Shown one piece after another: positions 108 through 58,394 of a stretch of 64,000 bases of DNA. The DNA comes from an uncultured Candidatus Saccharibacteria bacterium. Lineage in GTDB: Bacteria > Patescibacteriota > Minisyncoccia > Phycocordibacterales > DATDWN01. Position 1 is the stretch's first letter; each line of letters begins with the position of its first letter. Under the pieces are notes generated by a model, which was given only the letters and a program-made list of their open reading frames with translations, ran no database searches and was not told the origin of the DNA. Both the position numbers and the translations under genes were made by a program. The stretch lies in NCBI GenBank assembly GCA_964468795.1, contig CAYXWL010000002.1, positions 5,459-69,458 of the forward strand. Reading direction: 5' to 3'.

Positions 108-2186
108 CTATCTGAGTAAATCCTTATTGCCCATTTTCTTGCTTTCCTTTTTTTTCTTTAACTCTTTCTTTGCATTTTCTTCTATCATTTTTTGAAGCTC
201 TAGTATTTCGTCTCGAAGTATGGCAGCGGTTTCAAAGTCCAATATTTTTACCGCCCCTTCCATCTGCTTTTCCTTTTGCTTTATTAACTTTTGTGGATCC
301 TTTGAAAACTTTTCTTTATCAATTGCTACAAGTTCCGAAACAGCTTTTGCATGTTCTGTACGCATCTGATCCGTAATATCCTGTATCTTCTTTATGATAG
401 TTTTTGGCGTAATGTCATGCTCTTTGTTGTAAGCCATCTGAAGCTCCCTTCTTCGCGCAGTTTCTTTTATTGCATAATCCATTGAGCCTGTCATATTTTC
501 CGCATACAAAATTACTCTTCCGTCCACGTTTCTCGCAGCTCTGCCAATAATCTGTATTAGAGATGATTCGCTTCGCAAGAAGCCTTCTTTATCGGCATCA
601 AGTATTCCAATCAGAGTTACTTCTGGCAAATCCAGACCTTCTCGCAAAAGATTTACTCCCACAAGCACGTCAAACTTTCCTTTTCGAAGATTAGTTAGGA
701 TTTCAATTCTATCAATAGTTTTAATATCGCTGTGCAGATACTCAGCTTTTATTCCCCTTTCTTTCAAATACTCACTCAAGTCCTCCGCCATCTTTTTTGT
801 AAGAGTGGTAGCAATAACCCTTCCACCTTTTTCGATAGCTTTTTCCGATTCCTCTATGAGGTCCCAAACTTGTCCTCTGAAATTTCCTTTTTGAACAATA
901 GGTCTTACTTCGATAACTGGATCAACAAGACCGGTTGGTCGTATGACCTGCTCTACAACCTGCTCTGAATGTTCCCTTTCATAATCTCCAGGAGTAGCAG
1001 AGGTATAGATGGTTTGCCCAACTCTTTCTTCAAATTCAGAAAACTTGAGCGGTCTGTTATCCTTTGCACTAGGCAATCTGAATCCGAAATCAACCAAACT
1101 TTGCTTTCGAGAAGAGTCTCCGCCATACATTGCACCAATCTGAGGAACAGAAACATGGCTCTCATCTATGACAGTTAGAAAATCTGGACTGCCGTCCGCC
1201 TTGTGTGGGAAATATGATAGCAACGTATCAGGAGCCTCTCCCGGAAGCTTTCCTGAAAAATGACGAGAATAATTTTCTATACCATTGCAATATCCCATTT
1301 CCCTTATGAGTGCCAGGTCGTAGTTTGTTCGTCTCTTAAGCCTTTCCGCTTCAAGTATCTTGCCCTCTGCTTCAAGCTCTGCGAGCCTGTCCTTGAGTTC
1401 TGCTTTTATTGTTCTAAAAGCTCTCTCCACCTGATCATCTGTTGAAATGAAATGCTTAGCAGGAAACAAGAAGAACACATTTATATCTTCTAGAATTTCG
1501 CGAGTAATCGCATCTATTTTCGTAATATTGCTCACTACTCCGTCTAAAATATCTATTCTGTAAATTACTTTTTCAGAAACTGGCATAACCTCCACTGTAT
1601 TGCCCATAGCCCTGAAAAGTCCGGGCGAAAGATCCACACCCGTTCTTTCAAAATGAATGTCTACCAAGCGCCTGATAAAATCCGCGCGAGAAATTTTTTG
1701 TCCCTTTTCAACCTTCATGTTTACCCTCTCGTATTCGACAGGTGATCCCAAGCCGTAAATGCATGAAACTGAGGCTACGATAATAACATCTTTCCTGGTA
1801 AGCAGTGCTTGTGTAGAAGCATGTCGCAGTCTTTCTATCTCTTCGTTTATCATTGCCTCTTTTTCTATGTAAGTATCAGAAACCGGCATATATGCTTCTG
1901 GCTGATAGTAGTCGTAGTATGAAACAAAGTAGTGCACTGCGTTGTTAGGAAAAAATTCTTTGTACTCTTGGGCTAGCTGTGCTGCCAGAGTTTTGTTGTG
2001 AGCAATTACAAGAGTCGGCTTTTGAACTTCTTGTATTACATTTGCAACTGTGTAAGTTTTGCCGGATCCAGTCACGCCTAAAAGAGTCTGATGTCTCAGA
2101 CCTTTTTTTACACCTTCTACCAGCGCTTTGATTGCCTTTGGCTGATCGCCAGCTGGCGGAAACTCTCTATGAATTTCAAATTTCAT
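108..2186 (-). CDS. uvrB: Excinuclease ABC subunit B (UvrB). The likely start is MKFEIH at 2186; the listed ORF extends 22 codons further upstream.
   Basis: Walker A GVTGSGKT, UvrB helicase motifs and the C-terminal UvrB/UvrC interaction helix (EILELQKMIEE) are all present. Confidence 0.9.
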   Translation of the reverse strand: MKFEIHREFPPAGDQPKAIKALVEGVKKGLRHQTLLGVTGSGKTYTVANVIQEVQKPTLVIAHNKTLAAQLAQEYKEFFPNNAVHYFVSYYDYYQPEAYMPVSDTYIEKEAMINEEIERLRHASTQALLTRKDVIIVASVSCIYGLGSPVEYERVNMKVEKGQKISRADFIRRLVDIHFERTGVDLSPGLFRAMGNTVEVMPVSEKVIYRIDILDGVVSNITKIDAITREILEDINVFFLFPAKHFISTDDQVERAFRTIKAELKDRLAELEAEGKILEAERLKRRTNYDLALIREMGYCNGIENYSRHFSGKLPGEAPDTLLSYFPHKADGSPDFLTVIDESHVSVPQIGAMYGGDSSRKQSLVDFGFRLPSAKDNRPLKFSEFEERVGQTIYTSATPGDYEREHSEQVVEQVIRPTGLVDPVIEVRPIVQKGNFRGQVWDLIEESEKAIEKGGRVIATTLTKKMAEDLSEYLKERGIKAEYLHSDIKTIDRIEILTNLRKGKFDVLVGVNLLREGLDLPEVTLIGILDADKEGFLRSESSLIQIIGRAARNVDGRVILYAENMTGSMDYAIKETARRRELQMAYNKEHDITPKTIIKKIQDITDQMRTEHAKAVSELVAIDKEKFSKDPQKLIKQKEKQMEGAVKILDFETAAILRDEILELQKMIEENAKKELKKKKESKKMGNKDLLR

Positions 2187-2515
2187 AATTAGATTATAGC
2201 AGTGTGCAAAATAAAATATCGTTGAAGTATTATTTTTTAGGAGACTTCGCAAGGCGGGTAGCCGAGACTTGAGGAATTTTCCAGCAGGAAAATATCCGTG
2301 CTCCTAAAAAATAATACTGAGAAAGATATTTTATACTACAATACCTTAATTTCTCATGTACGAGAAGAGGGCGCCCAGTATACCTGAGTCGCCCCTGATT
2401 AAATCCGGTTCTTCTCGCACTTGCGTGCGCCCCTACGACCGGTAGCTTGGGGAATAAAATTACTGATATTATTATATACCCTATTTAAAATATGTCAATA
2501 GGGTCAGTTAGGTGC

Positions 2516-2547
2516 GAAAAAGGTGGTACTTTCGTACCACCTTTTTA
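2516..2547. terminator. Bidirectional rho-independent terminator.
   Basis: aggtggtac-tttc-gtaccacct is a 9-bp stem flanked by an A-run and a T-run. Confidence 0.6.
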
Positions 2548-2555
2548 AATTTGCA

Positions 2556-2927
2556 TTAGCGACGAACGAGAGGGAGGCTCTCCCACCAAAGCCGTGCAAA
2601 ATGGTAATCGAGAGCCTGCTCAGAGTTTGTGGGTATCCAGAGAAAATTCTTTCCTCTCTGGCCTGGGAGAGCAGGCACCTTTCTGCCGATTGCGTCTGTC
2701 TCCACACCCATCCTCTTGTTGAAATGCTTGCCTGTCTTGGGGTCAATCGAAATGCCGATGAGTCCCTCTTGCACAGTGGCACAATGTGCGCACTGAAGTT
2801 GAGCAGACTCGTAGTGATTTCCTCTCATCCTCCAGAGCTTGATTCCCCTTATGTTGCATGTAGAGCAGATGTACGGCACATCGGGCGATGGTTTGTAATC
2901 AGGCGTTCCCTGAGTTTGCATAATCAT
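2556..2927 (-). CDS. Questionable 123-aa ORF with CxxC...CxxC motifs inside a GC-rich island. It may be non-coding (structured RNA).
   Basis: Long ORFs occur on both strands here, as expected for GC-rich non-coding DNA. A terminator hairpin follows at 2516-2547. Confidence 0.2.
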   Translation of the reverse strand: MIMQTQGTPDYKPSPDVPYICSTCNIRGIKLWRMRGNHYESAQLQCAHCATVQEGLIGISIDPKTGKHFNKRMGVETDAIGRKVPALPGQRGKNFLWIPTNSEQALDYHFARLWWESLPLVRR

Positions 2928-2980
2928 GCACTCCCCCTTTTCCAGTAATATGTAATACCTTTTGTATGCCTTTTTGTCAA

Positions 2981-4195
2981 TTAGTAATTTAGATATGAGC
3001 TAAGAAATTCTCTTTTATATTCTTTAAAATTGCCGTGGAGAATAGATTCTCTCATTCTGTTAACCATGTTTGTCAAAAAATGAATATTGTGTATCGAAGC
3101 AAGTGTTGAGGCAAGCATCTCCTTTGCGTGGAACAGATGAGCCACATAACTTCGAGAGAAGTTCTTGCATGTGTAGCACTCGCACCCTGAATCAAGCGGA
3201 GAGAGATCGCTTCTAAACTGCTGGTTGTTCAGATTTATTTTGCCTTTCTTTGTGTATATGCCGCCATTTCTTGCCATGCGTGTCGGAGCGACGCAATCAA
3301 AAAGATCGCATCCATTCTCAACAGCTATGAACAAATCCTCTGGCTCGCCAATGCCAAGCAAATGTCGTGGTTTCTCTTTCGGTAAAATACTGTTGCACCA
3401 CTGCACAGCCTTATCCATATCTTCCTTGTCGAATGATCCGCCAATACCAAAGCCATCGAAATCGAGTGAGCCAATGTATTCTGCAGATTCTTTTCTTAAA
3501 GCTTCGTTCCTGCCTCCCTGCACGATTCCAAACAATGCCTGCCTTTCTGAATTTTCCTTAGACTTATGATAATCAAGACTTCTTTTCGCCCATCTATGAG
3601 TTCTCTCCAAAGCTTCTTTCTGATAATGAAGCGATTCGTGAGGAGATGTGCACTCATCGAAAGCAAAAATGATGTCTGCACCAAGGTTGTGCTGAATATC
3701 TATGGATTTTTCTGGTGTAAAGTAATGCGCATCGCCCTTTGTGTGATCTCGAAACATCACTCCGTTCGGATCAATGCGGGCGATCTTCGGCCTATTACCT
3801 TCGTCAGCACTTTCCGGTAATGCAAGCTCCTCGTCTTTCTTATGAGCAATCTTACTCATGCCTTTGTTGCCGTACGCTGCACCAAGTGAGAAAACTTGAA
3901 AACCTCCGGAGTCTGTCATAAGTGGGCCATTCCAATTCATCGCCCTGTGCAATCCTCCCATATTTTTTATTGATTCATCTCCGGGTTCTAAATACAAATG
4001 ATATGTATTGCAAATAATTGTCTGCACTCCAGTGTCTTTAGCTTGCTCGGGAGTGAGTGACTTTACTGTGCCTTTTGTTCCAACAGCAACAAAAGCCGGA
4101 GTCTGGATATCTCCGTGAGGTGTGTGTATCGTTCCAACTCTTCCCAATCCTTCTGAAAGTTCCTTGTGAATCTCAAACGAGAGAGGCTTTTTCAT
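2981..4195 (-). CDS. tgt: Queuine tRNA-ribosyltransferase.
   Basis: Tgt motifs are present (DSGGFQ, the zinc site CxCxxC...H region, and the LGIGEPEDL-like core). Length is 404 aa. Confidence 0.85.
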   Translation of the reverse strand: MKKPLSFEIHKELSEGLGRVGTIHTPHGDIQTPAFVAVGTKGTVKSLTPEQAKDTGVQTIICNTYHLYLEPGDESIKNMGGLHRAMNWNGPLMTDSGGFQVFSLGAAYGNKGMSKIAHKKDEELALPESADEGNRPKIARIDPNGVMFRDHTKGDAHYFTPEKSIDIQHNLGADIIFAFDECTSPHESLHYQKEALERTHRWAKRSLDYHKSKENSERQALFGIVQGGRNEALRKESAEYIGSLDFDGFGIGGSFDKEDMDKAVQWCNSILPKEKPRHLLGIGEPEDLFIAVENGCDLFDCVAPTRMARNGGIYTKKGKINLNNQQFRSDLSPLDSGCECYTCKNFSRSYVAHLFHAKEMLASTLASIHNIHFLTNMVNRMRESILHGNFKEYKREFLSSYLNY

Positions 4196-4633
4196 TACTA
4201 GAGATTAGCAAATAAATGTAATTTAAACAAAAGAAAAGCCGGTACCTACTGGTAGCGGCTGCACGTGTATGGGAGTTTGTCAGGGCTCTCACTTTCCTAC
4301 CCTCAAGCCTAAATGAATGGCTTCCCTTGTGTATTGTGTGGACATATGTCCTGTGAGTCTGCACAGTGAGAAGGTGCAAACGTTTTGTTTAAAAAGATCA
4401 AGAACTCAGGGCGGAGCTGAGAACCGCATGGCAAGCGTTCGTTGCCGCCGCCCTGAGAGAACATGAGATGTGGTAGTCGCACACGGCCCTGGTGGGGCAA
4501 GCAGCAGACAGGACATCTCACAGTTCTGTGTACATTATATCAACTGTATTTTTTCTGTCAAGTATTACAATAGTTCAATAAAAAATAGCCCTGTAACAGG
4601 CCATTTTTTCATGCGTACTTATTTTAGCTAAAA

Positions 4634-5104
4634 TTACTGCTGAGGTTTTTCGACTTTTAACAACTCGACGTCAAAAATCAAAGTAGACCCTGCTGGAATC
4701 GGTCCTACATTTTTCATTCCATATCCCAGTTCAGGAGGGATGGTGAGAGTTCTCTTGCCTCCAACTTTCATGCCAACTAGGCCTTCGTCCCATCCCTTTA
4801 TAACCATCCCTGATCCTAGAACGAACTGAAGTGGCTCCCCACGAGAAAGCGAACTGTCAAAAACATCTCCGTTGGTAAACTTGCCTGTGTAATGAACTAT
4901 CACCCTGTCGCCTGTTTGTGCAGTATCGCCAGTACCCACTACAGTATCGTTAACTATTAGACCTTGGTTTTGCATTTTTTTTGAAATGTTAGATTTGTCA
5001 CCTGTAAATAATGATATCAGAGCCTGTCCAAACACAAAGAAAAAACCTACTACAAAAACAGAAACCACAATAGCTACCCACTCGTTCTTGCTTAATGTTT
5101 TCAT
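4634..5104 (-). CDS. FKBP-type peptidyl-prolyl cis-trans isomerase, membrane-anchored.
   Basis: An N-terminal TM helix is followed by an FKBP domain ([16 protein letters not shown]...[23 protein letters not shown]). Confidence 0.85.
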
Positions 5105-5336: not shown

Positions 5337-6086
5337 ATGTCTCACAAAAAGATCGTAAATATTCCAGAAAAGCATATTGATAGAAAGCCTCTTACAAAGA
5401 AAGAGCTTCACGATACGGCAGTAGAAAGAGTTTCGCTCATAGCCAAAGAATTCACAAACGGCTTTAATTTTCTCAGACGTTATCCGAAGTCTGTTACTTT
5501 TTTCGGAGGAAGCAGATTCCATGAACATGACAAGGAATATTTGAAAGCAAAATCTCTAGCCTCCAGAATTTCAAACGAAATCGGCTACGCTATTTTCACC
5601 GGCGGAGGCCCAGGAGTAATGGAGGGTGCAAATAGAGGTGCGTACGAATCTGGAGGCCAATCTGTCGGCCTTACAATCGAGCTTGCCGATCATCAGATTC
5701 AAAACCCTTATCTTACTGACAACCTCGATTTCTATTATTTTTTCAGCCGGAAGGTCAGCTTGGCATTTTCAGCAGAAGCTTATATTTTCTTCCCTGGAGG
5801 ATTCGGCACTTTTGATGAATTATTCGAAATTTTGACTTTGGTCCAGACAAAGAAAATCGAGAAAGTGCCTATTATTTTAGTTGGTTCTGATTTTTGGAAT
5901 GAGTTCGACAAATTTATCAGAAAAGAAATGCTTGGTAGCGGAACAATAGACGAACAGGATCTTTCGCTTTATACAATTACAGACGATGAAGACCATATTA
6001 TTGAAATAATCAAAAGTGTACCAATACATAATGGAATAAAGTTCCATTATAAAGATCTTGAATCTTCAGGAATTGAGATACAGTAG
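5337..6086 (+). CDS. LOG family protein (TIGR00730; cytokinin riboside 5'-monophosphate phosphoribohydrolase-like).
   Basis: GGGPGVMEGANRGA and PGGFGTFDELFE motifs. Confidence 0.8.
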   Translation: MSHKKIVNIPEKHIDRKPLTKKELHDTAVERVSLIAKEFTNGFNFLRRYPKSVTFFGGSRFHEHDKEYLKAKSLASRISNEIGYAIFTGGGPGVMEGANRGAYESGGQSVGLTIELADHQIQNPYLTDNLDFYYFFSRKVSLAFSAEAYIFFPGGFGTFDELFEILTLVQTKKIEKVPIILVGSDFWNEFDKFIRKEMLGSGTIDEQDLSLYTITDDEDHIIEIIKSVPIHNGIKFHYKDLESSGIEIQ

Positions 6087-6099
6087 AATATAAATATAT

Positions 6100-6201
6100 A
6101 AAAAAAACAAAACACTTTTATTCGCTGAAACTTTTGATAGACCAGACCCTACCCCTAACCCCTATTAAAAGTTTCAAGCTCAACAAGTGTTTTGTTTTTT
6201 T
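6100..6201. terminator. Long nested inverted repeat between the convergent LOG and xseB genes, probably a bidirectional terminator.
   Basis: A 17-bp perfect IR (6101-6117 / 6185-6201) encloses a 9-bp IR (6127-6135 / 6167-6175). The loop is C-rich (ccctacccctaacccctatt). Confidence 0.45.
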
Positions 6202-6414: not shown

Positions 6415-7653
6415 TTATATTATTTGTGAGTTAATTATACCGTCAGACAATGTGATGTCTAGCTCATCGCCCTTTTTAACATCCATTGCACTCCTCAAAA
6501 CCTTACCTTTTGATCTTACAATGCTATATCCCCTTTTGAGCTGTCTTTCTGGGTTGTAAGAGTCTATTACTTTGCCGACTTGGGACAAATGATCGTCTAT
6601 AGAAGCATGCATGAGCGAGAATTCTCTGGAAAGCTCCTTGGAAGACTGCTCAATTTTTTCAAAAACTCTTTTTATTCCGCTTTCTATCCTATCTACAGAA
6701 CGCAAAAGCGTCTGCTCCGCTCGATGAAAAGTCTGGATAAATTCAGCGAACCTGCCCTGTATGATATTTTCGCCGGTTTCTATTGCGTACTGGCTGTCTA
6801 TTAGTGCCACCTGATAATTTACAAAAATCTTTTCTTCCGCAAGCCTTACCAAAGACAAGGCTTCCATCCAGCCCTGAGACAAAAGATTTGCCACAGCTGT
6901 AGGAGTAGATACATTTTTGTCTGAAACCATTGAAACTAATGGCTCGTCCTTGTCATGGCCGATTCCAGTAAGTACAGGCACCGGAAAATCTGCAACTGCC
7001 CTGACTAATACTTCGTTATTGAACGCCTGAAAAGATTCCAGCGAGCCTCCACCTCTCATGATAACTAAAACATCTAATTCTTCTTTTTTTAAAGTATTTA
7101 CAGCTGAAAGCAGATCCTTTATCGAATCCTGACCCTCAACTTTTGAATCAACAAACAAAATTTGAAATCCAAATTTGCCTATGTTTGTCAGAAAGTCGTT
7201 TATAACGGCTCCACTCTTTGACGTTATAACGCCTATTTTGCATGGATATTTTGGAATCTGCCTTTTTCTTAGAGGAGAAAACAAGCCTTCTAGTTCTAGC
7301 TGTTTTTTTAACTTATCATAAGCTAACTGCAAAGCTCCCTCGCCAACCATTTCGATAAGTTCAACTTGTAGGGAGAGCCCGCCATTCGGCTTATAGACTG
7401 CAGGATATGCGGTAATCACAACTTCCATGCCATCTTTTATAGGCACTCCGGAAATTTTAAAATCATTCTTCCACATAAAGCACTTAACAGTGCTGGCATC
7501 CTTGCTGTCCTTTATTGAAAAGTAAAGATAGCTTCTGCCCTCATACATCTGCACGCCGGAAATTTCTCCGATAATCCTAGCCTTTTCTGCCTTGAGAGAA
7601 GAATTGACTCTGTCCAAATATTGGCTCACAGGTATGATTTCTTTCTTATCCAT
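6415..7653 (-). CDS. xseA: Exodeoxyribonuclease VII large subunit.
   Basis: An OB-fold N-terminus is followed by the ExoVII large-subunit catalytic region. The gene is 412 aa and adjacent to xseB. Confidence 0.85.
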   Translation of the reverse strand: MDKKEIIPVSQYLDRVNSSLKAEKARIIGEISGVQMYEGRSYLYFSIKDSKDASTVKCFMWKNDFKISGVPIKDGMEVVITAYPAVYKPNGGLSLQVELIEMVGEGALQLAYDKLKKQLELEGLFSPLRKRQIPKYPCKIGVITSKSGAVINDFLTNIGKFGFQILFVDSKVEGQDSIKDLLSAVNTLKKEELDVLVIMRGGGSLESFQAFNNEVLVRAVADFPVPVLTGIGHDKDEPLVSMVSDKNVSTPTAVANLLSQGWMEALSLVRLAEEKIFVNYQVALIDSQYAIETGENIIQGRFAEFIQTFHRAEQTLLRSVDRIESGIKRVFEKIEQSSKELSREFSLMHASIDDHLSQVGKVIDSYNPERQLKRGYSIVRSKGKVLRSAMDVKKGDELDITLSDGIINSQII

Positions 7654-10430: not shown

Positions 10431-10460
10431 TTGACACATAGGCATAATGTATGCTATAAT
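10431..10460 (+). promoter_or_regulatory. Near-consensus sigma70 promoter (TTGACA, 18-nt spacer with TGn, TATAAT).
   Basis: TTGACA lies at 10431-10436 and TATAAT at 10455-10460. No annotated plus-strand gene lies downstream. Confidence 0.5.
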
Positions 10461-10559
10461 ATTACAAATGTCAGTACACCACAACCCGGGAAGTCTCACC
10501 CACTTTCAGAGCCCGCAGACGCATCACGCGCTTGCCGGCTTTTTATATATTGCAAAATA

Positions 10560-25320: not shown

Positions 25321-25480
25321 CTGTTCTTTGCAGTTAACTTCCTTACACGAAATCTGGCTTTGTTCCTAATCTGGCTTTGGTATTCCGGCTTGGAACAAAG
25401 CCAGATTTCTGTTCTTTGCAGTTAACTTCCTTACACGAAATCTGGCTTTGTTCCAAGCCGGAATACCAAAGCCAGATTAG
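25321..25480. repeat. Composite repeat element: a 46-nt perfect direct repeat ×2 (25321-25366, 25409-25454) interleaved with inverted repeats. The 12-mer core AATCTGGCTTTG occurs 5× in F,F,R,F,R orientation.
   Basis: Located by direct reading of the sequence. The element overlaps the 3' part of the listed ORFs 25343..25564(-) and 25377..25577(+). Confidence 0.8.
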
Positions 25481-25564
25481 GTCGAATATGATTAAAAGCA
25501 ATATGCCTCCAATTAGAGCAGATGGAATATTCTTATCTTTTGATAATTTTTCCATCATGCACAT
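25343..25564 (-). CDS. Small membrane protein ORF. The N-terminal ~35 aa look genuine, but the 3' half is encoded by the repeat element and may be an artefact or an insertion.
   Basis: MEKLSKDKNIPSALIGGILLLIIFDLIWLWY followed by repeat-encoded residues. Confidence 0.25.
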   Translation of the reverse strand: MCMMEKLSKDKNIPSALIGGILLLIIFDLIWLWYSGLEQSQISCKEVNCKEQKSGFVPSRNTKARLGTKPDFV

Positions 25565-43960: not shown

Positions 43961-45276
43961 ATACTTACTATTTTATTAGCTAAGGTGATCTTACTCCTTA
44001 TGCATGAAAGTAATTCTCTCTTCTCAATATTAGAAGCTTCTTTGAGTACATACTTTGCATAATTTCTGATATCTATATCTTTAACCTCGATTTTTTCTTT
44101 AGTTCCAAGAATGACTCTCTGGAATTTTTTCACTCTTTCTACTTCAGCTTTAATTTTTTCTTTTATACCTATCTCATTAAGATCAATTTTATCCATAAGT
44201 AATACAAATTGTTCAATCAAATCTTCCTCATTTATGTACCCAGACTTACAATGCTTATCTTTAAATTTTGTGCATCCATAATAAACATAACGATGTACAT
44301 TTCCATTCTTCTGTTTCTTAAACTTCTCGTCAGCAGTAATACCAGACCCACATAAACCACAAGTCATAAGTTTGGTAAAAGCAAACTCTTTATCTTCAAC
44401 TCGAATAACTTGTCCGTTTATCTGAGTTTGAACTTGATCAAATAATTCTTTGGTTATCAGAGGTTCGTGTATGCCTTTGTACCAAAGACCGCTTTTCTTC
44501 GGAAACTCAAAAGTTCCGTAATAAAAATCACTTTTTAAAATTAAATATATATTACTCAGTGTTAAGCCTTTATTTCCATTTGGAGTTTTAAAATTGAGTT
44601 CAAATTTCAGCCAATGGTATAGTTTCTTTCCTGTCCATTTCTCGTAAGCAACTTTCTCAAACATTTTTCTAATGATGTGGCCTCGTTCTGGATCAATGTA
44701 CACATGACCTTTACGATCAGCCCTCATTTCATTTAAATAGCCCATAGGGGCTGGTGCAGGCCATAGACCCATCTCACATCTAGTTCTCAGTCCACGCTTA
44801 ACATTGATACTTTTATTGTCGTTCTCAAGTTTTGCATGAGATCACAAAATCATGAGTAGAAACTTTTCGTTTGGTGAATTCTGGAATGACTGACCATAAG
44901 TTCTAATTTGATGTAGTTTCTTTTCGTCCATTAAATCCACAAGAGTTCCAAGGTCACCAGCATTTCTACTTAAACGGTCTGGTGCCCATGTCAAAATACC
45001 TGTGTATCTTCCAGAATTGAGATCACGGATAAGTTCATTAAACACAGGTCTTTGTCCTGATGCTTTGGCAGAATAAGATTCACGTCTAATATCAATTATT
45101 TCAAGATTTTCTCTTTCAGCGATTTGTAGCATTTCTTTTACTTGAGAATCAATTGAGAGCGCTTGTTTCTCGTCAGATTCAGTTGATTTTCTAGCATAAA
45201 GACAATATCTGACTTTATCTACTGGAACTGCATCTGGTGCCCATATTTGAGCCCCTCTGTTTATTACTGCTTCCAT
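43957..45276 (-). pseudogene. Large serine recombinase interrupted by one in-frame TGA at about 44842-44844, the position where the intact paralog has a conserved Cys. The ORF track shows it as 43957..44772 plus 44842..45276.
   Basis: The N-terminal resolvase domain carries YARKSTE (catalytic Ser). The C-terminal recombinase and zinc-ribbon domains are also present. The sequence is collinear with 57072..58394 across the stop. Confidence 0.75.
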
Positions 45277-57071: not shown

Positions 57072-58394
57072 TTATTCGAGCGTTATCTTTTTATCCTTTA
57101 ATGTAATCTTATTCCTCAAACACCCCAACAACTCTCTCTTCTCTCCATCAGTTCCATTTCTTAGGATGTATTTACAATAGTTACGGATATCAATATCACC
57201 AACTTCAATCTTGTCTTTTGAATTGAGTACTATCTGATTAAACTTTTTAAATCTCTGTACTTCGTTTTTGATTTTCTCCTTTATTCCTATCTCATCTATA
57301 TTGATTGTCTCCATCAATTCTTCAAATTGTTTAATCAAATCTATTTCGTTAATATATCCACCTTTGCAATTCCTATCTTTGGATCCATTACAGCCATAAT
57401 ATACATGTCTATTAATACTCCCATCTTTTAATTTTTTGAATTTCTCATCTGGAGTAATACCAGAAGAACATAGTCCACAAATCATCAACTTAGTAAAAGC
57501 AAATTCTTTGTTCTCAGTCCGTATTACAGATCTCTTCATCTGTTCCTGTACTTGATCAAATAATTCTTTAGTAATAAGTGCTTCATGTTTCCCTCTATAC
57601 CAATTACCCGAATCTTTAGGATATTCAAAAGTTCCATAGTAGAAGTGATTTTGTAGGATCATATACACATTACTCAAAGTTAAGTTTTTGTTTCCACTTG
57701 CTGTCTTAAGATTTAAATCAAATTTAAGCCAGTTGTATAGTTTTCTCCCACTCCACTTTTCATATGCTACTTTTTCAAACATTTTCCTAATAATAGGTGC
57801 TCTCTGTTTGTCGGTATATATCACTCCTTTCTCTCCAACATTTTTACTGTTCAAGTACCCAGTCGGAGCGACAGACGGCCATAATCCCATCTCAACTCTA
57901 GTTTTCAATCCACGTTTTACGTTTATACTTTTGTTGTCATTTTCTAACTTGGCTTGGCTACAAAGTATCATTAGTAAAAACTTCTCGTTAGGTGAATTAT
58001 GAAAATGTTGTCCGTATGTACGAATTTCAAGTAATTGTTTCTCATCCATCAAGTCTACTAGTGATCCTAAGTCTCCCGCATTCCTGCTCAATCTATCAGG
58101 AGCCCACGTCAGTATTCCATTAAATCTTTTTCTTCTAATATCTTCCAGTAGTTCCTTAAACACAGGTCTTTGACCTGAATCCTTAGCGGAGTGAGATTCT
58201 CGACGAATATCAATTATTTCTAAATTTTCTCTTTCAGCGATATTAAGCATTTCCTTTACCTGGCTATCAATACTTAGTGCTTGCTTCTCATCTGATTCAG
58301 TTGATTTTCTAGCATACAAACAATATTTAATTTTAATTGTTGGTAAGATTATTTCTTTTCCTATTAGTCCTGTCGATTGTATATGTATTTCCAT
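57072..58394 (-). CDS. Large serine recombinase (intact).
   Basis: Resolvase domain (YARKSTE), recombinase domain and a C-terminal zinc ribbon (CGLCSS...YYGC). Length is 440 aa. Confidence 0.85.
   Translation of the reverse strand: MEIHIQSTGLIGKEIILPTIKIKYCLYARKSTESDEKQALSIDSQVKEMLNIAERENLEIIDIRRESHSAKDSGQRPVFKELLEDIRRKRFNGILTWAPDRLSRNAGDLGSLVDLMDEKQLLEIRTYGQHFHNSPNEKFLLMILCSQAKLENDNKSINVKRGLKTRVEMGLWPSVAPTGYLNSKNVGEKGVIYTDKQRAPIIRKMFEKVAYEKWSGRKLYNWLKFDLNLKTASGNKNLTLSNVYMILQNHFYYGTFEYPKDSGNWYRGKHEALITKELFDQVQEQMKRSVIRTENKEFAFTKLMICGLCSSGITPDEKFKKLKDGSINRHVYYGCNGSKDRNCKGGYINEIDLIKQFEELMETINIDEIGIKEKIKNEVQRFKKFNQIVLNSKDKIEVGDIDIRNYCKYILRNGTDGEKRELLGCLRNKITLKDKKITLE

Follow-up and report, generated by a model that had tools for sequence, protein, structure and literature searches.

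We examined positions 2187 to 2980 of a 64-kb stretch of DNA (hereafter, the window) from a Paceibacteria genome (Candidate Phyla Radiation [CPR]/Patescibacteria). This region fills the gap between uvrB and tgt and contains a palindromic element, a candidate small RNA (sRNA-A), and an open reading frame of 123 aa (ORF123, 2556-2927). The uvrB gene (108-2186) encodes a 692-aa product that carried UvrB Pfam domains in an exact-protein look-up, and tgt (2981-4195; PF01702) encodes a tRNA-guanine transglycosylase whose best 80 matches in GTDB genomes were all in Paceibacteria metagenome-assembled genomes that were Zambryskibacteria-like. The uvrB, ORF123, and tgt genes were all encoded on the minus strand, and a 369-nt intergenic region (2187-2555) separated uvrB from ORF123. 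We placed the uvrB start at 2186, where the product begins with MKFEIH; a start at 2252, which came from a mechanically called ORF beginning with TTG, was spurious. The relatives' loci and contigs used for comparison are denoted by L-numbers (e.g., L005 and L169).

A previous reading of this DNA, which was made from the letters alone (the sequence-only reading), flagged 2253-2950 as a GC-rich, heavily self-complementary island between uvrB and tgt. The location was correct, and so was the report of long ORFs on both strands (141 aa on the plus strand, and 123 aa and 92 aa on the minus strand). The high GC content and the self-complementarity turned out to belong to different parts of the region. 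The GC content was 50 to 51.5% at 2500-2900, which corresponded to ORF123, but only 38.5 to 39% at 2200-2500, compared to 37.4% for the window. Self-complementarity was heavy in the intergenic region 2187-2555 (z = -6.9 on the plus strand and -8.35 on the minus strand), but the ORF123 segment (2548-2980) folded no better than shuffled sequences (z = -1.3 and -1.75). Thus, the apparent island and the opposite-strand ORFs were attributable to the high GC content of ORF123, as a GC-rich coding sequence has few stop codons in any frame. All of the stems named in the sequence-only reading were found: gggcg/cgccc was at 2369-2373/2390-2394, ttttttaggag/ctcctaaaaaa was at 2233-2243/2301-2311, and cgagaaga/tcttctcg was at 2361-2368/2410-2417, rather than at 2380-2436.

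The palindromic element (2226-2318, minus strand) was predicted to fold into a three-way junction. Its outer stem, P1, consisted of 18 bp between 2301-2318 and 2226-2243. The junction strand J1/2 (2298-2300) read CAC and was followed by P2 (2273-2297), in which a bulged U separated 3 bp from 7 bp and a UGCU loop capped the helix, and by P3 (2250-2271), which contained a CAAG/CUUG stem, an internal loop, and the hairpin CGG-CUAC-CCG. The hairpin had a predicted energy of -35 kcal/mol, and the z-score of 2226-2320 (-6.4) drove the fold signal of the intergenic region. The element was not an intrinsic terminator, since its 3' arm was followed by CUUCAACGAU, without a U-tract.

The first trace of a family came from weak nhmmer matches of 2226-2325 at unrelated positions in three loci. 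MAFFT alignments mis-registered the outer stem; the covariance model R1 was seeded by a hand alignment padded with N and was then refined. Covariance-model searches of 1.5 Mb of Paceibacteria DNA identified 12 strong copies (36 to 87 bits) in 10 contigs and two weak copies, and the copy in the window scored 46.1 bits with R1 and 72.7 bits with R2. The units were ~80 to 120 nt, the family was absent from Rfam, and every copy on its own folded into the same three-way junction. The sequence of P1 (12 to 24 bp) was not conserved. In P2, which was preceded by the CAC junction, the family had 3 bp, a bulged U, 7 to 8 AU-rich bp, and a UGCU, UGGU, or UACU loop. In P3, it had a stem of 2 to 6 bp, a CUC/UCC internal loop, a GC stem of 3 to 6 bp, and a CGUC-like loop.

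In the 12-sequence alignment (A9), 94.1% of the modelled cells were paired, compared to 60.4% in shuffles and ~52% with slid partners, and all 27 modelled pairs had changes on both sides; these figures were generous, as the alignment was fitted to the model and kin copies were included (three from one array and two orthologous pairs). The copy in L055 was GC-rich and was compensated throughout. Four of the 306 cells were G·U and six were A·C, so neither strand was favored, as expected of a DNA palindrome. These results established a family of elements with a common, covarying three-way-junction fold. A pattern search of viral-contig DNA with the P2 core yielded one chance match that lacked P1 and P3. 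We also considered a ~100-nt, long imperfect hairpin at 6101-6201, which lies between a convergent LOG-family gene (5337-6086) and the gene at 6415-7653. It had no CAC/P2 core and no covariance-model match, and it was rejected as a family member.

The copies were found in a variety of settings. Three were located in-frame within the tgt ORF, where they kept the frame and added 27 to 40 residues: the L075 and L125 copies shared a site and were in the sense orientation, and the L167 copy was at another site and was antisense. A degenerate palindrome was present at the L075/L125 site in L145. Three other copies directly followed a co-oriented stop codon, namely, that of mreC in L129 and that of an orthologous LOG-family gene in L056 and L048. 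The L055 copy was located between rpoC and dnaG and was antisense to both, and L044 carried a tandem array of three units followed by a canonical terminator. The density of the sampled copies was ~1 per 100 kb, and the L044 array was the only case of multiplicity within a genome. No Y1 or DDE transposase gene adjoined the copies.

The element was also a site of assembly breaks. In four unrelated Logan assemblies (k = 31), the tgt-side contig ended exactly at 2251, and in two of those four samples the uvrB-side contig began exactly at 2264. The 14-nt overlap equals 2 x 30 - 46, as expected if the 46 nt at 2235-2280 (the P3 core) were repeated exactly elsewhere between different flanks, and SPAdes contigs with a larger k (L085 and L178 to L180) passed straight through. 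This pattern suggests that a further near-identical copy exists in the genome or the community. An inversion switch and a coverage drop-out were also considered as causes of the breaks; a putative exact 46-nt repeat fit the numbers better. In addition, DNA that was 100% identical to the window over 1.3 to 3.1 kb (L001 to L004, L085 to L087, and L176 to L180) was observed in Logan assemblies of four unrelated SRA runs (SRR1027651, SRR6837569, SRR13612670, and SRR14932508), and identical ORF123 and uvrB proteins were observed in three ENA assemblies. Identity of this kind points to a single clonal population that has been met in many studies.

ORF123 (2556-2927, minus strand) had a GC content of 51.1% (56.5% at third codon positions) and was the sole truly GC-rich part of the flagged stretch. 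Its 123-aa product contained C21xxC24 and C46xxC49, as well as KLW and WW..LP motifs. An exhaustive HMMER search of 1.84 billion representative proteins identified 160 homologue clusters at E <= 1e-3, of which 3 also reached E <= 1e-10; most of the 160 were 95 to 130 aa and aligned end to end. A word-indexed protein search recovered ORF123 alone, and the family was visible only with exhaustive HMMER. In a 30-member alignment, 12 columns were invariant, including those of the four cysteines (Y19, C21, C24, K30-L31-W32, C46, C49, G66, P85, and W114-W115), and R33, I80-G81, A86, P88, and L118-P119 were nearly so. The layout was that of a four-cysteine zinc ribbon followed by a conserved half, TDQIG..VPAIP … WW..LPT, and an AlphaFold model built from the family alignment had a predicted local distance difference test score (pLDDT) of 90.4 and a predicted template modeling score (pTM) of 0.82.

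Known families accounted for little of this protein. The best Pfam match of ORF123, Zn_ribbon_IS1595, was below the cut-off (13.8 bits versus the required 25.4 bits), and nothing significant was found in PHROG, among PDB sequences, or with Foldseek. Pfam DUF7573 gave weak matches in 10 of 30 ORF123 relatives and none in ORF123 itself. The family profile had a weak GATA-finger match in the PDB (E = 1.6e-4). ORF123 resembled GATA-like and other small four-cysteine zinc-ribbon proteins in its CxxC-(21)-CxxC spacing but differed from them in its conserved C-terminal half, which had no known counterpart.

ORF123 was accompanied by putative expression signals on the minus strand. A Shine-Dalgarno sequence (GGGGGAG, 2931-2937) was located 3 nt before the ATG and 9 nt before a second in-frame ATG. 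A promoter-like site (2952-2980) with TTGACA at 2980-2975, a 17-nt spacer, and TATTAC at 2957-2952, which is a consensus match only, directly followed the tgt stop codon. The hairpin and T-run that the sequence-only reading had called a terminator were confirmed at 2517-2546; the stem was 13 bp, the minus-strand loop was GAAA, and flanking A/T runs gave the terminator a bidirectional form.

Homologues of ORF123 were found near tgt in two other Paceibacteria. In L169, a 113-aa homologue was located between tgt and uvrB. It was 40% identical to ORF123, compared to 86% for tgt and 88% for uvrB, and it was also GC-rich (57% versus 43 to 45%). In L174, a 105-aa homologue was located downstream of tgt, after two RNA-like cassettes. 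ORF123 itself was absent from the 160 relatives' loci that were first compared. As the nearest homologue was 40% identical, synonymous sites were saturated, and contigs from the window's own species were all 100% identical. A separate observation was made in L175, in which a 118-aa homologue (L175:1-117) was directly downstream of a gene that ended in a tyrosine-recombinase C-terminal motif (LGHKNISTTQIYTH). The results indicated that ORF123 is a real protein-coding gene of an uncharacterized yet conserved zinc-ribbon family, as the sequence-only reading had offered as its alternative. That reading also suggested a foreign origin. The gene was indeed GC-rich and very diverged, but given the homologues downstream of tgt in two other Paceibacteria, it is better termed a fast-diverging resident of the tgt-uvrB locus.

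In the intergenic region, a perfect σ70 promoter was present at 2471-2498 on the minus strand (TTGACA at 2498-2493, a 16-nt spacer, and TATAAT at 2476-2471; 12 of 12 matches), with a predicted start near 2464. An 8-bp perfect inverted repeat, ACCCTATT-N11-AATAGGGT, at 2478-2485 and 2497-2504 overlapped the -35 box and the spacer, and this repeat may be an operator. Downstream of the promoter was a GC-rich structured segment, sRNA-A (2345-2464, minus strand). Its stems were an 8-bp GAGAAGA(G)/…UCUUCUC, GGGCG/CGCCC, and a GCAA-capped hairpin, and loop pairing between CCGGU and ACCGG was possible. The GNRA loops occurred on the minus strand only. The window contained three perfect promoters, compared to 0.05 expected. 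All three were intergenic, each was ahead of GC-rich untranslated sequence, and the other two units ended in terminators. Thus, sRNA-A resembled independent sRNA genes in its consensus -35 and -10 boxes, its GC-rich untranslated sequence, and its GNRA-capped hairpins on the transcribed strand. Based on these sequence features, the promoter at 2471-2498 most likely yields a lineage-specific, GC-rich untranslated RNA.

The other two units had features of their own. At 4235-4561 on the minus strand, a second perfect promoter (TTGACA-16-TATAAT, 4561-4534) was followed by ~300 nt of GC-rich untranslated sequence and by a terminator (…GCCGCUACCAGUAGGUACCGGCUUUUCUUUUG, ~4235-4265) just upstream of tgt. 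This unit was Rfam-negative at E <= 1, and its GGGUAGGAAAGUGAGAGCC stretch bore a faint resemblance to the CR-I region of RNase P. At 10431-10548 on the plus strand, a third perfect promoter (TTGACA-18-TATAAT) was followed by a ~75-nt GC-rich RNA-like segment and a terminator (GCCGGCTTTTT); its -35 box was within a 7-bp inverted repeat, TGTCAAT…ATTGACA.

Covariance-model scans against ~4,200 Rfam families covered the whole window, 2100-3100, 4150-4700, and six relatives' loci. At the gathering threshold, the whole window yielded only one tRNA and LOOT (RF03000; 58551-58667, plus strand), a full-length match of 79.6 bits. At E <= 10, 2100-3100 yielded only terminator- or microRNA-like chance matches of 20 bits or less. 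In a search for closer strains for sRNA-A covariation, tgt scans of genomes and metagenomes and a 5.8-billion-protein search recovered nothing above 86% tgt identity.

The uvrB gene appeared to have a promoter of its own. An extended -10 element, TGcTATAAT (TGCTATAAT), was located at 2193-2201 on the minus strand and ended 6 nt before the ATG. Relatives L005, L007, L008, L009, and L169 had the identical arrangement of -10 box, 6 nt, and ATG, without a Shine-Dalgarno site, and these relatives had a terminator just upstream of the uvrB -10 box. We infer that the uvrB mRNA is leaderless, that this trait is conserved in the clade, and that uvrB expression is independent of the upstream content.

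That upstream content varied widely. The tgt-uvrB synteny was kept in the 96 fetched loci, and the gap ranged from ~0 to >5000 nt. In the nearest relatives, the gaps held mutually non-homologous small units, including several cassettes with a promoter, a GC-rich RNA, and a terminator. Other contents were a pilin-like ORF (L005, L006, and L088), helix-turn-helix (HTH)/excisionase-like ORFs (L008 and L089), and an 86-aa Cys-rich ORF (L170). Cassettes with compensated hairpins were shared pairwise by L005/L006, L007/L090, L008/L090, and L171/L172, and there was no Rfam match to the relatives' gap cassettes in the six loci scanned.

Several of these gaps were noted for their individual features. 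Three shared RNA-like motifs (L008:5660-5715 and L090:4900-4950; the first 145 nt of the L007 and L090 gaps; and the last 200 nt of the L005, L006, and L088 gaps) had compensatory stem changes, and none was in Rfam; an example is GGGGUGGCG…CGCCACC versus GGGCGGUG…CACCGCCC around UCUUGAAGGUC…CUGUGGGG. The L009 gap contained a promoter-driven RNA-like cassette (L009:7227-7580) with a closing stem around seven tandem copies of GCAAAACC. In L170, the gap (L170:1973-2862) contained two RNA-like cassettes along with the 86-aa Cys-rich ORF, and an IS200-like Y1 transposase gene flanked by GGAAACCCCG… hairpins was located upstream of tgt (L170:1-600). This Y1 element was considered as a partner for the palindromic element and was rejected; its hairpins were unrelated, and the covariance models had no match there.

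In our view, the flagged stretch is probably a mosaic in which three minus-strand units, independent of one another, occupy the hypervariable gap between tgt and uvrB. Unit 1 (2517-2980), with its promoter-like site, Shine-Dalgarno sequence, ORF123, and terminator, would produce a small zinc-binding protein that is recurrently linked to tgt. Unit 2 (~2345-2498) would consist of a perfect promoter that fires toward uvrB and yields the untranslated, lineage-specific sRNA-A. Unit 3 (2226-2318) would be a relic or a low-copy selfish palindromic insertion that folds, as DNA or as a transcript, into a three-way junction. The element probably serves as a stable 3' hairpin of the sRNA-A transcript, at the place where relatives have ordinary terminators. 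It would thereby separate that transcript from uvrB, which would start at its own promoter 40 nt further on. The sequence-only reading was partly right about structured noncoding RNA: the left third (2226-2498) contained minus-strand structured noncoding elements.

The family itself has the behavior of palindromic DNA that is selfish and was once mobile, of the type found in Rickettsia. The Rickettsia palindromic elements (RPEs), which Ogata et al. reportedly described in 2000, are ~100-nt palindromes that also occur in-frame inside genes in reduced genomes. The element resembled RPEs in being an imperfect palindrome of ~100 nt with a stable predicted hairpin, in occurring between genes and in-frame within genes in either orientation, in belonging to a reduced genome, and in keeping the reading frame while adding ~27 to 40 residues to a surface loop. 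It differed from RPEs in its Paceibacteria/CPR lineage, in having no sequence similarity to them, in a junction core that was conserved across distant genomes while the outer arms were conserved as pairing only, and in a copy number that looked low. We found no report of palindromic elements in-frame in CPR genes in the searchable literature. Miniature inverted-repeat transposable elements (MITEs) and repetitive extragenic palindromic (REP)-type repeats, such as Correia, ERIC, BOX, and REPIN-RAYT, usually have a high copy number and conserved arms. The element was like such repeats in being short, non-autonomous, hairpin-forming, and often located just after stop codons, and repeats of this type are co-transcribed as 3' hairpins. 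It was unlike them in that its arms were fully different between genomes and it had no conserved terminal inverted repeats.

A number of points weighed against the mosaic reading or against a selfish origin. The fold of sRNA-A was modest (z = -2.4 on the minus strand and -1.4 on the plus strand), no sRNA-A homologue was found with nhmmer in the window or in 1.5 Mb of relatives' DNA, and there was no canonical terminator between the promoter at 2498 and uvrB, so read-through into uvrB was possible. In these three respects, that is, fold, homologues, and a U-tract terminator of its own, sRNA-A differed from independent sRNA genes. For the element, the generous covariation figures were one such point. 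In addition, neither a second copy of the element nor one of its 14-mer was found in the window or in ~18 kb beyond its ends (~82 kb in total), and no transposase or empty site was identified for the element. Typical MITEs show the opposite of the element's pattern, in which the core was conserved and the arms were not. Finally, copies at orthologous sites (L056/L048 after the LOG-family gene and L075/L125 in tgt) were retained with compensatory changes, which argues that the fold itself is under selection, and this could point to a host function.

The main rival for the element, which we consider unlikely but worth keeping in view, is a functional structured RNA, which could act in cis as a 3'-end or processing module or be the product of a small RNA gene (e.g., a protein-bound or RNase III-processed hairpin). 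The conservation of the unpaired bases (the CAC, the UGCU and CGUC loops, and the CUC/UCC internal loop) while the stems covaried is what such an RNA would show. The orthologous L056 and L048 copies were kept although their flanking proteins were only 51% identical, and they and the L129 copy began right after a co-oriented stop codon. The L044 array with its terminator resembled a transcription unit, and P2 was compensated between L075 and L125 even within an ORF. However, three copies were in-frame in tgt at two sites and in both orientations, the L055 copy was antisense to both of its neighbors, and the element was tied to no single gene family. G·U pairs were almost absent and there was no strand asymmetry, which also argued against an RNA.

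The second rival concerns the promoter at 2471-2498, which could be the main regulated promoter of uvrB, with 2226-2464 as a long, structured 5' leader of the attenuator or riboregulator type. This promoter shares its strand with uvrB, no canonical hairpin with a U-tract lies between the two, and the inverted repeat over the -35 box is a possible operator. We regard this as distinctly unlikely. In the window and in five relatives, uvrB had a conserved -10 box of its own 6 nt ahead of the ATG, and the closest relative, L169, had only a terminator and the -10 box upstream of uvrB. Furthermore, the relatives' cassettes all ended in a terminator before the uvrB promoter, and the leader sequence was conserved nowhere in the window or the 1.5 Mb of relatives' DNA.

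A broader proposal, which at present we would rate as a long shot, is that the junction palindrome is a conserved Paceibacteria RNA or folded single-stranded DNA module that is read by a host or mobile-element protein. The gap would then be a cassette-exchange islet in which promoted GC-rich sRNAs and zinc-ribbon or HTH proteins are swapped between close species, possibly a regulatory or defense/counter-defense locus in genomes with almost no classical regulators.

It is very improbable that the element is a folded recombination site (attC-like, as in integrons, or an inversion site), that the gap is a cassette-exchange locus, and that the Logan breaks are alternative junctions. In favor of this reading, four samples had the same contig ends, with 14 nt of P3 as the common core, the gap had cassette-like turnover, structure rather than stem sequence was conserved, and a serine recombinase and an IS1595 transposase occur elsewhere in the genome. 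Nevertheless, the gap had a single element instead of one per cassette, and most of the relatives' cassettes had none. P1 was fully paired and lacked the extrahelical bases that attC sites typically have, no integrase gene adjoined the element, and a second near-identical copy explains the contig pattern equally well.

Two last explanations have almost nothing to recommend them. TIGR systems have been found in Parcubacteria, and some of their arrays are tandem units flanked by variable palindromes; they are defined by box C/D motifs flanking two short spacers and by an adjacent Tas (Nop-domain) gene (PMC12045711). The L044 array of three tandem units invited a comparison with such stem-loop guide-RNA units, but no conserved pair of box C (RUGAUGA) and box D (CUGA) was visible in alignment A9, the units were ~85 to 120 nt rather than ~36 nt plus a stem, most copies were solitary, and no Nop-domain gene was among the called neighbors of the copies. 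The other is the main claim of the sequence-only reading, namely, that 2253-2950 is one or more large (~700-nt) GC-rich noncoding RNAs of the RNase P, tmRNA, SRP, 6S, GOLLD, or ROOL kind and that ORF123 is a chance ORF; open frames on both strands, 51% GC in a 37% GC genome, and the lack of a Pfam family for ORF123 were in its favor, but the stretch was Rfam-negative, 2548-2980 folded like shuffles, and over half of the stretch was a conserved protein-coding gene with invariant Cys and Trp residues, a confident AlphaFold model, a Shine-Dalgarno sequence, and a terminator. Rfam-negative scans together with a conserved 123-aa family, which that reading had named beforehand among the evidence that would count against its claim, were what we found, and we regard the single 700-nt noncoding RNA as refuted.

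Some other features of the window and its genome were observed. Two perfect repeats were interleaved at 25321-25481, one inverted (45 nt; 25365-25409 and 25437-25481) and one direct (46 nt; 25321-25366 and 25409-25454). In contigs of the window's genome (L176:14375-15697 and L178:18221-19087), a serine recombinase (Resolvase/Recombinase/Zn_ribbon_recom) was beside a copper/heavy-metal cluster, to which the P-type-ATPase-like repeats of the window (44123-45217 versus 57241-58335) may relate. An IS1595-family transposase gene was ~6 kb beyond uvrB.

While the flagged finding was otherwise mostly ordinary, parts of it bear on the biology of these bacteria. The protein family that ORF123 defines is unannotated, folds confidently, and often adjoins tgt. 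At tgt-uvrB, unrelated small RNAs that are GC-rich and strongly promoted appear to turn over along with zinc-ribbon and HTH genes, and this turnover suggests where regulatory or conflict-related novelty arises in minimal genomes. The palindromic element is the more interesting part. In CPR metagenome bins, where such elements can interrupt assemblies and inflate protein loop insertions, the covariance model, if the family is confirmed, would allow them to be masked or annotated. Confirmation would also extend genic selfish DNA, which is known from Rickettsia, to a second ultra-small, host-dependent lineage.

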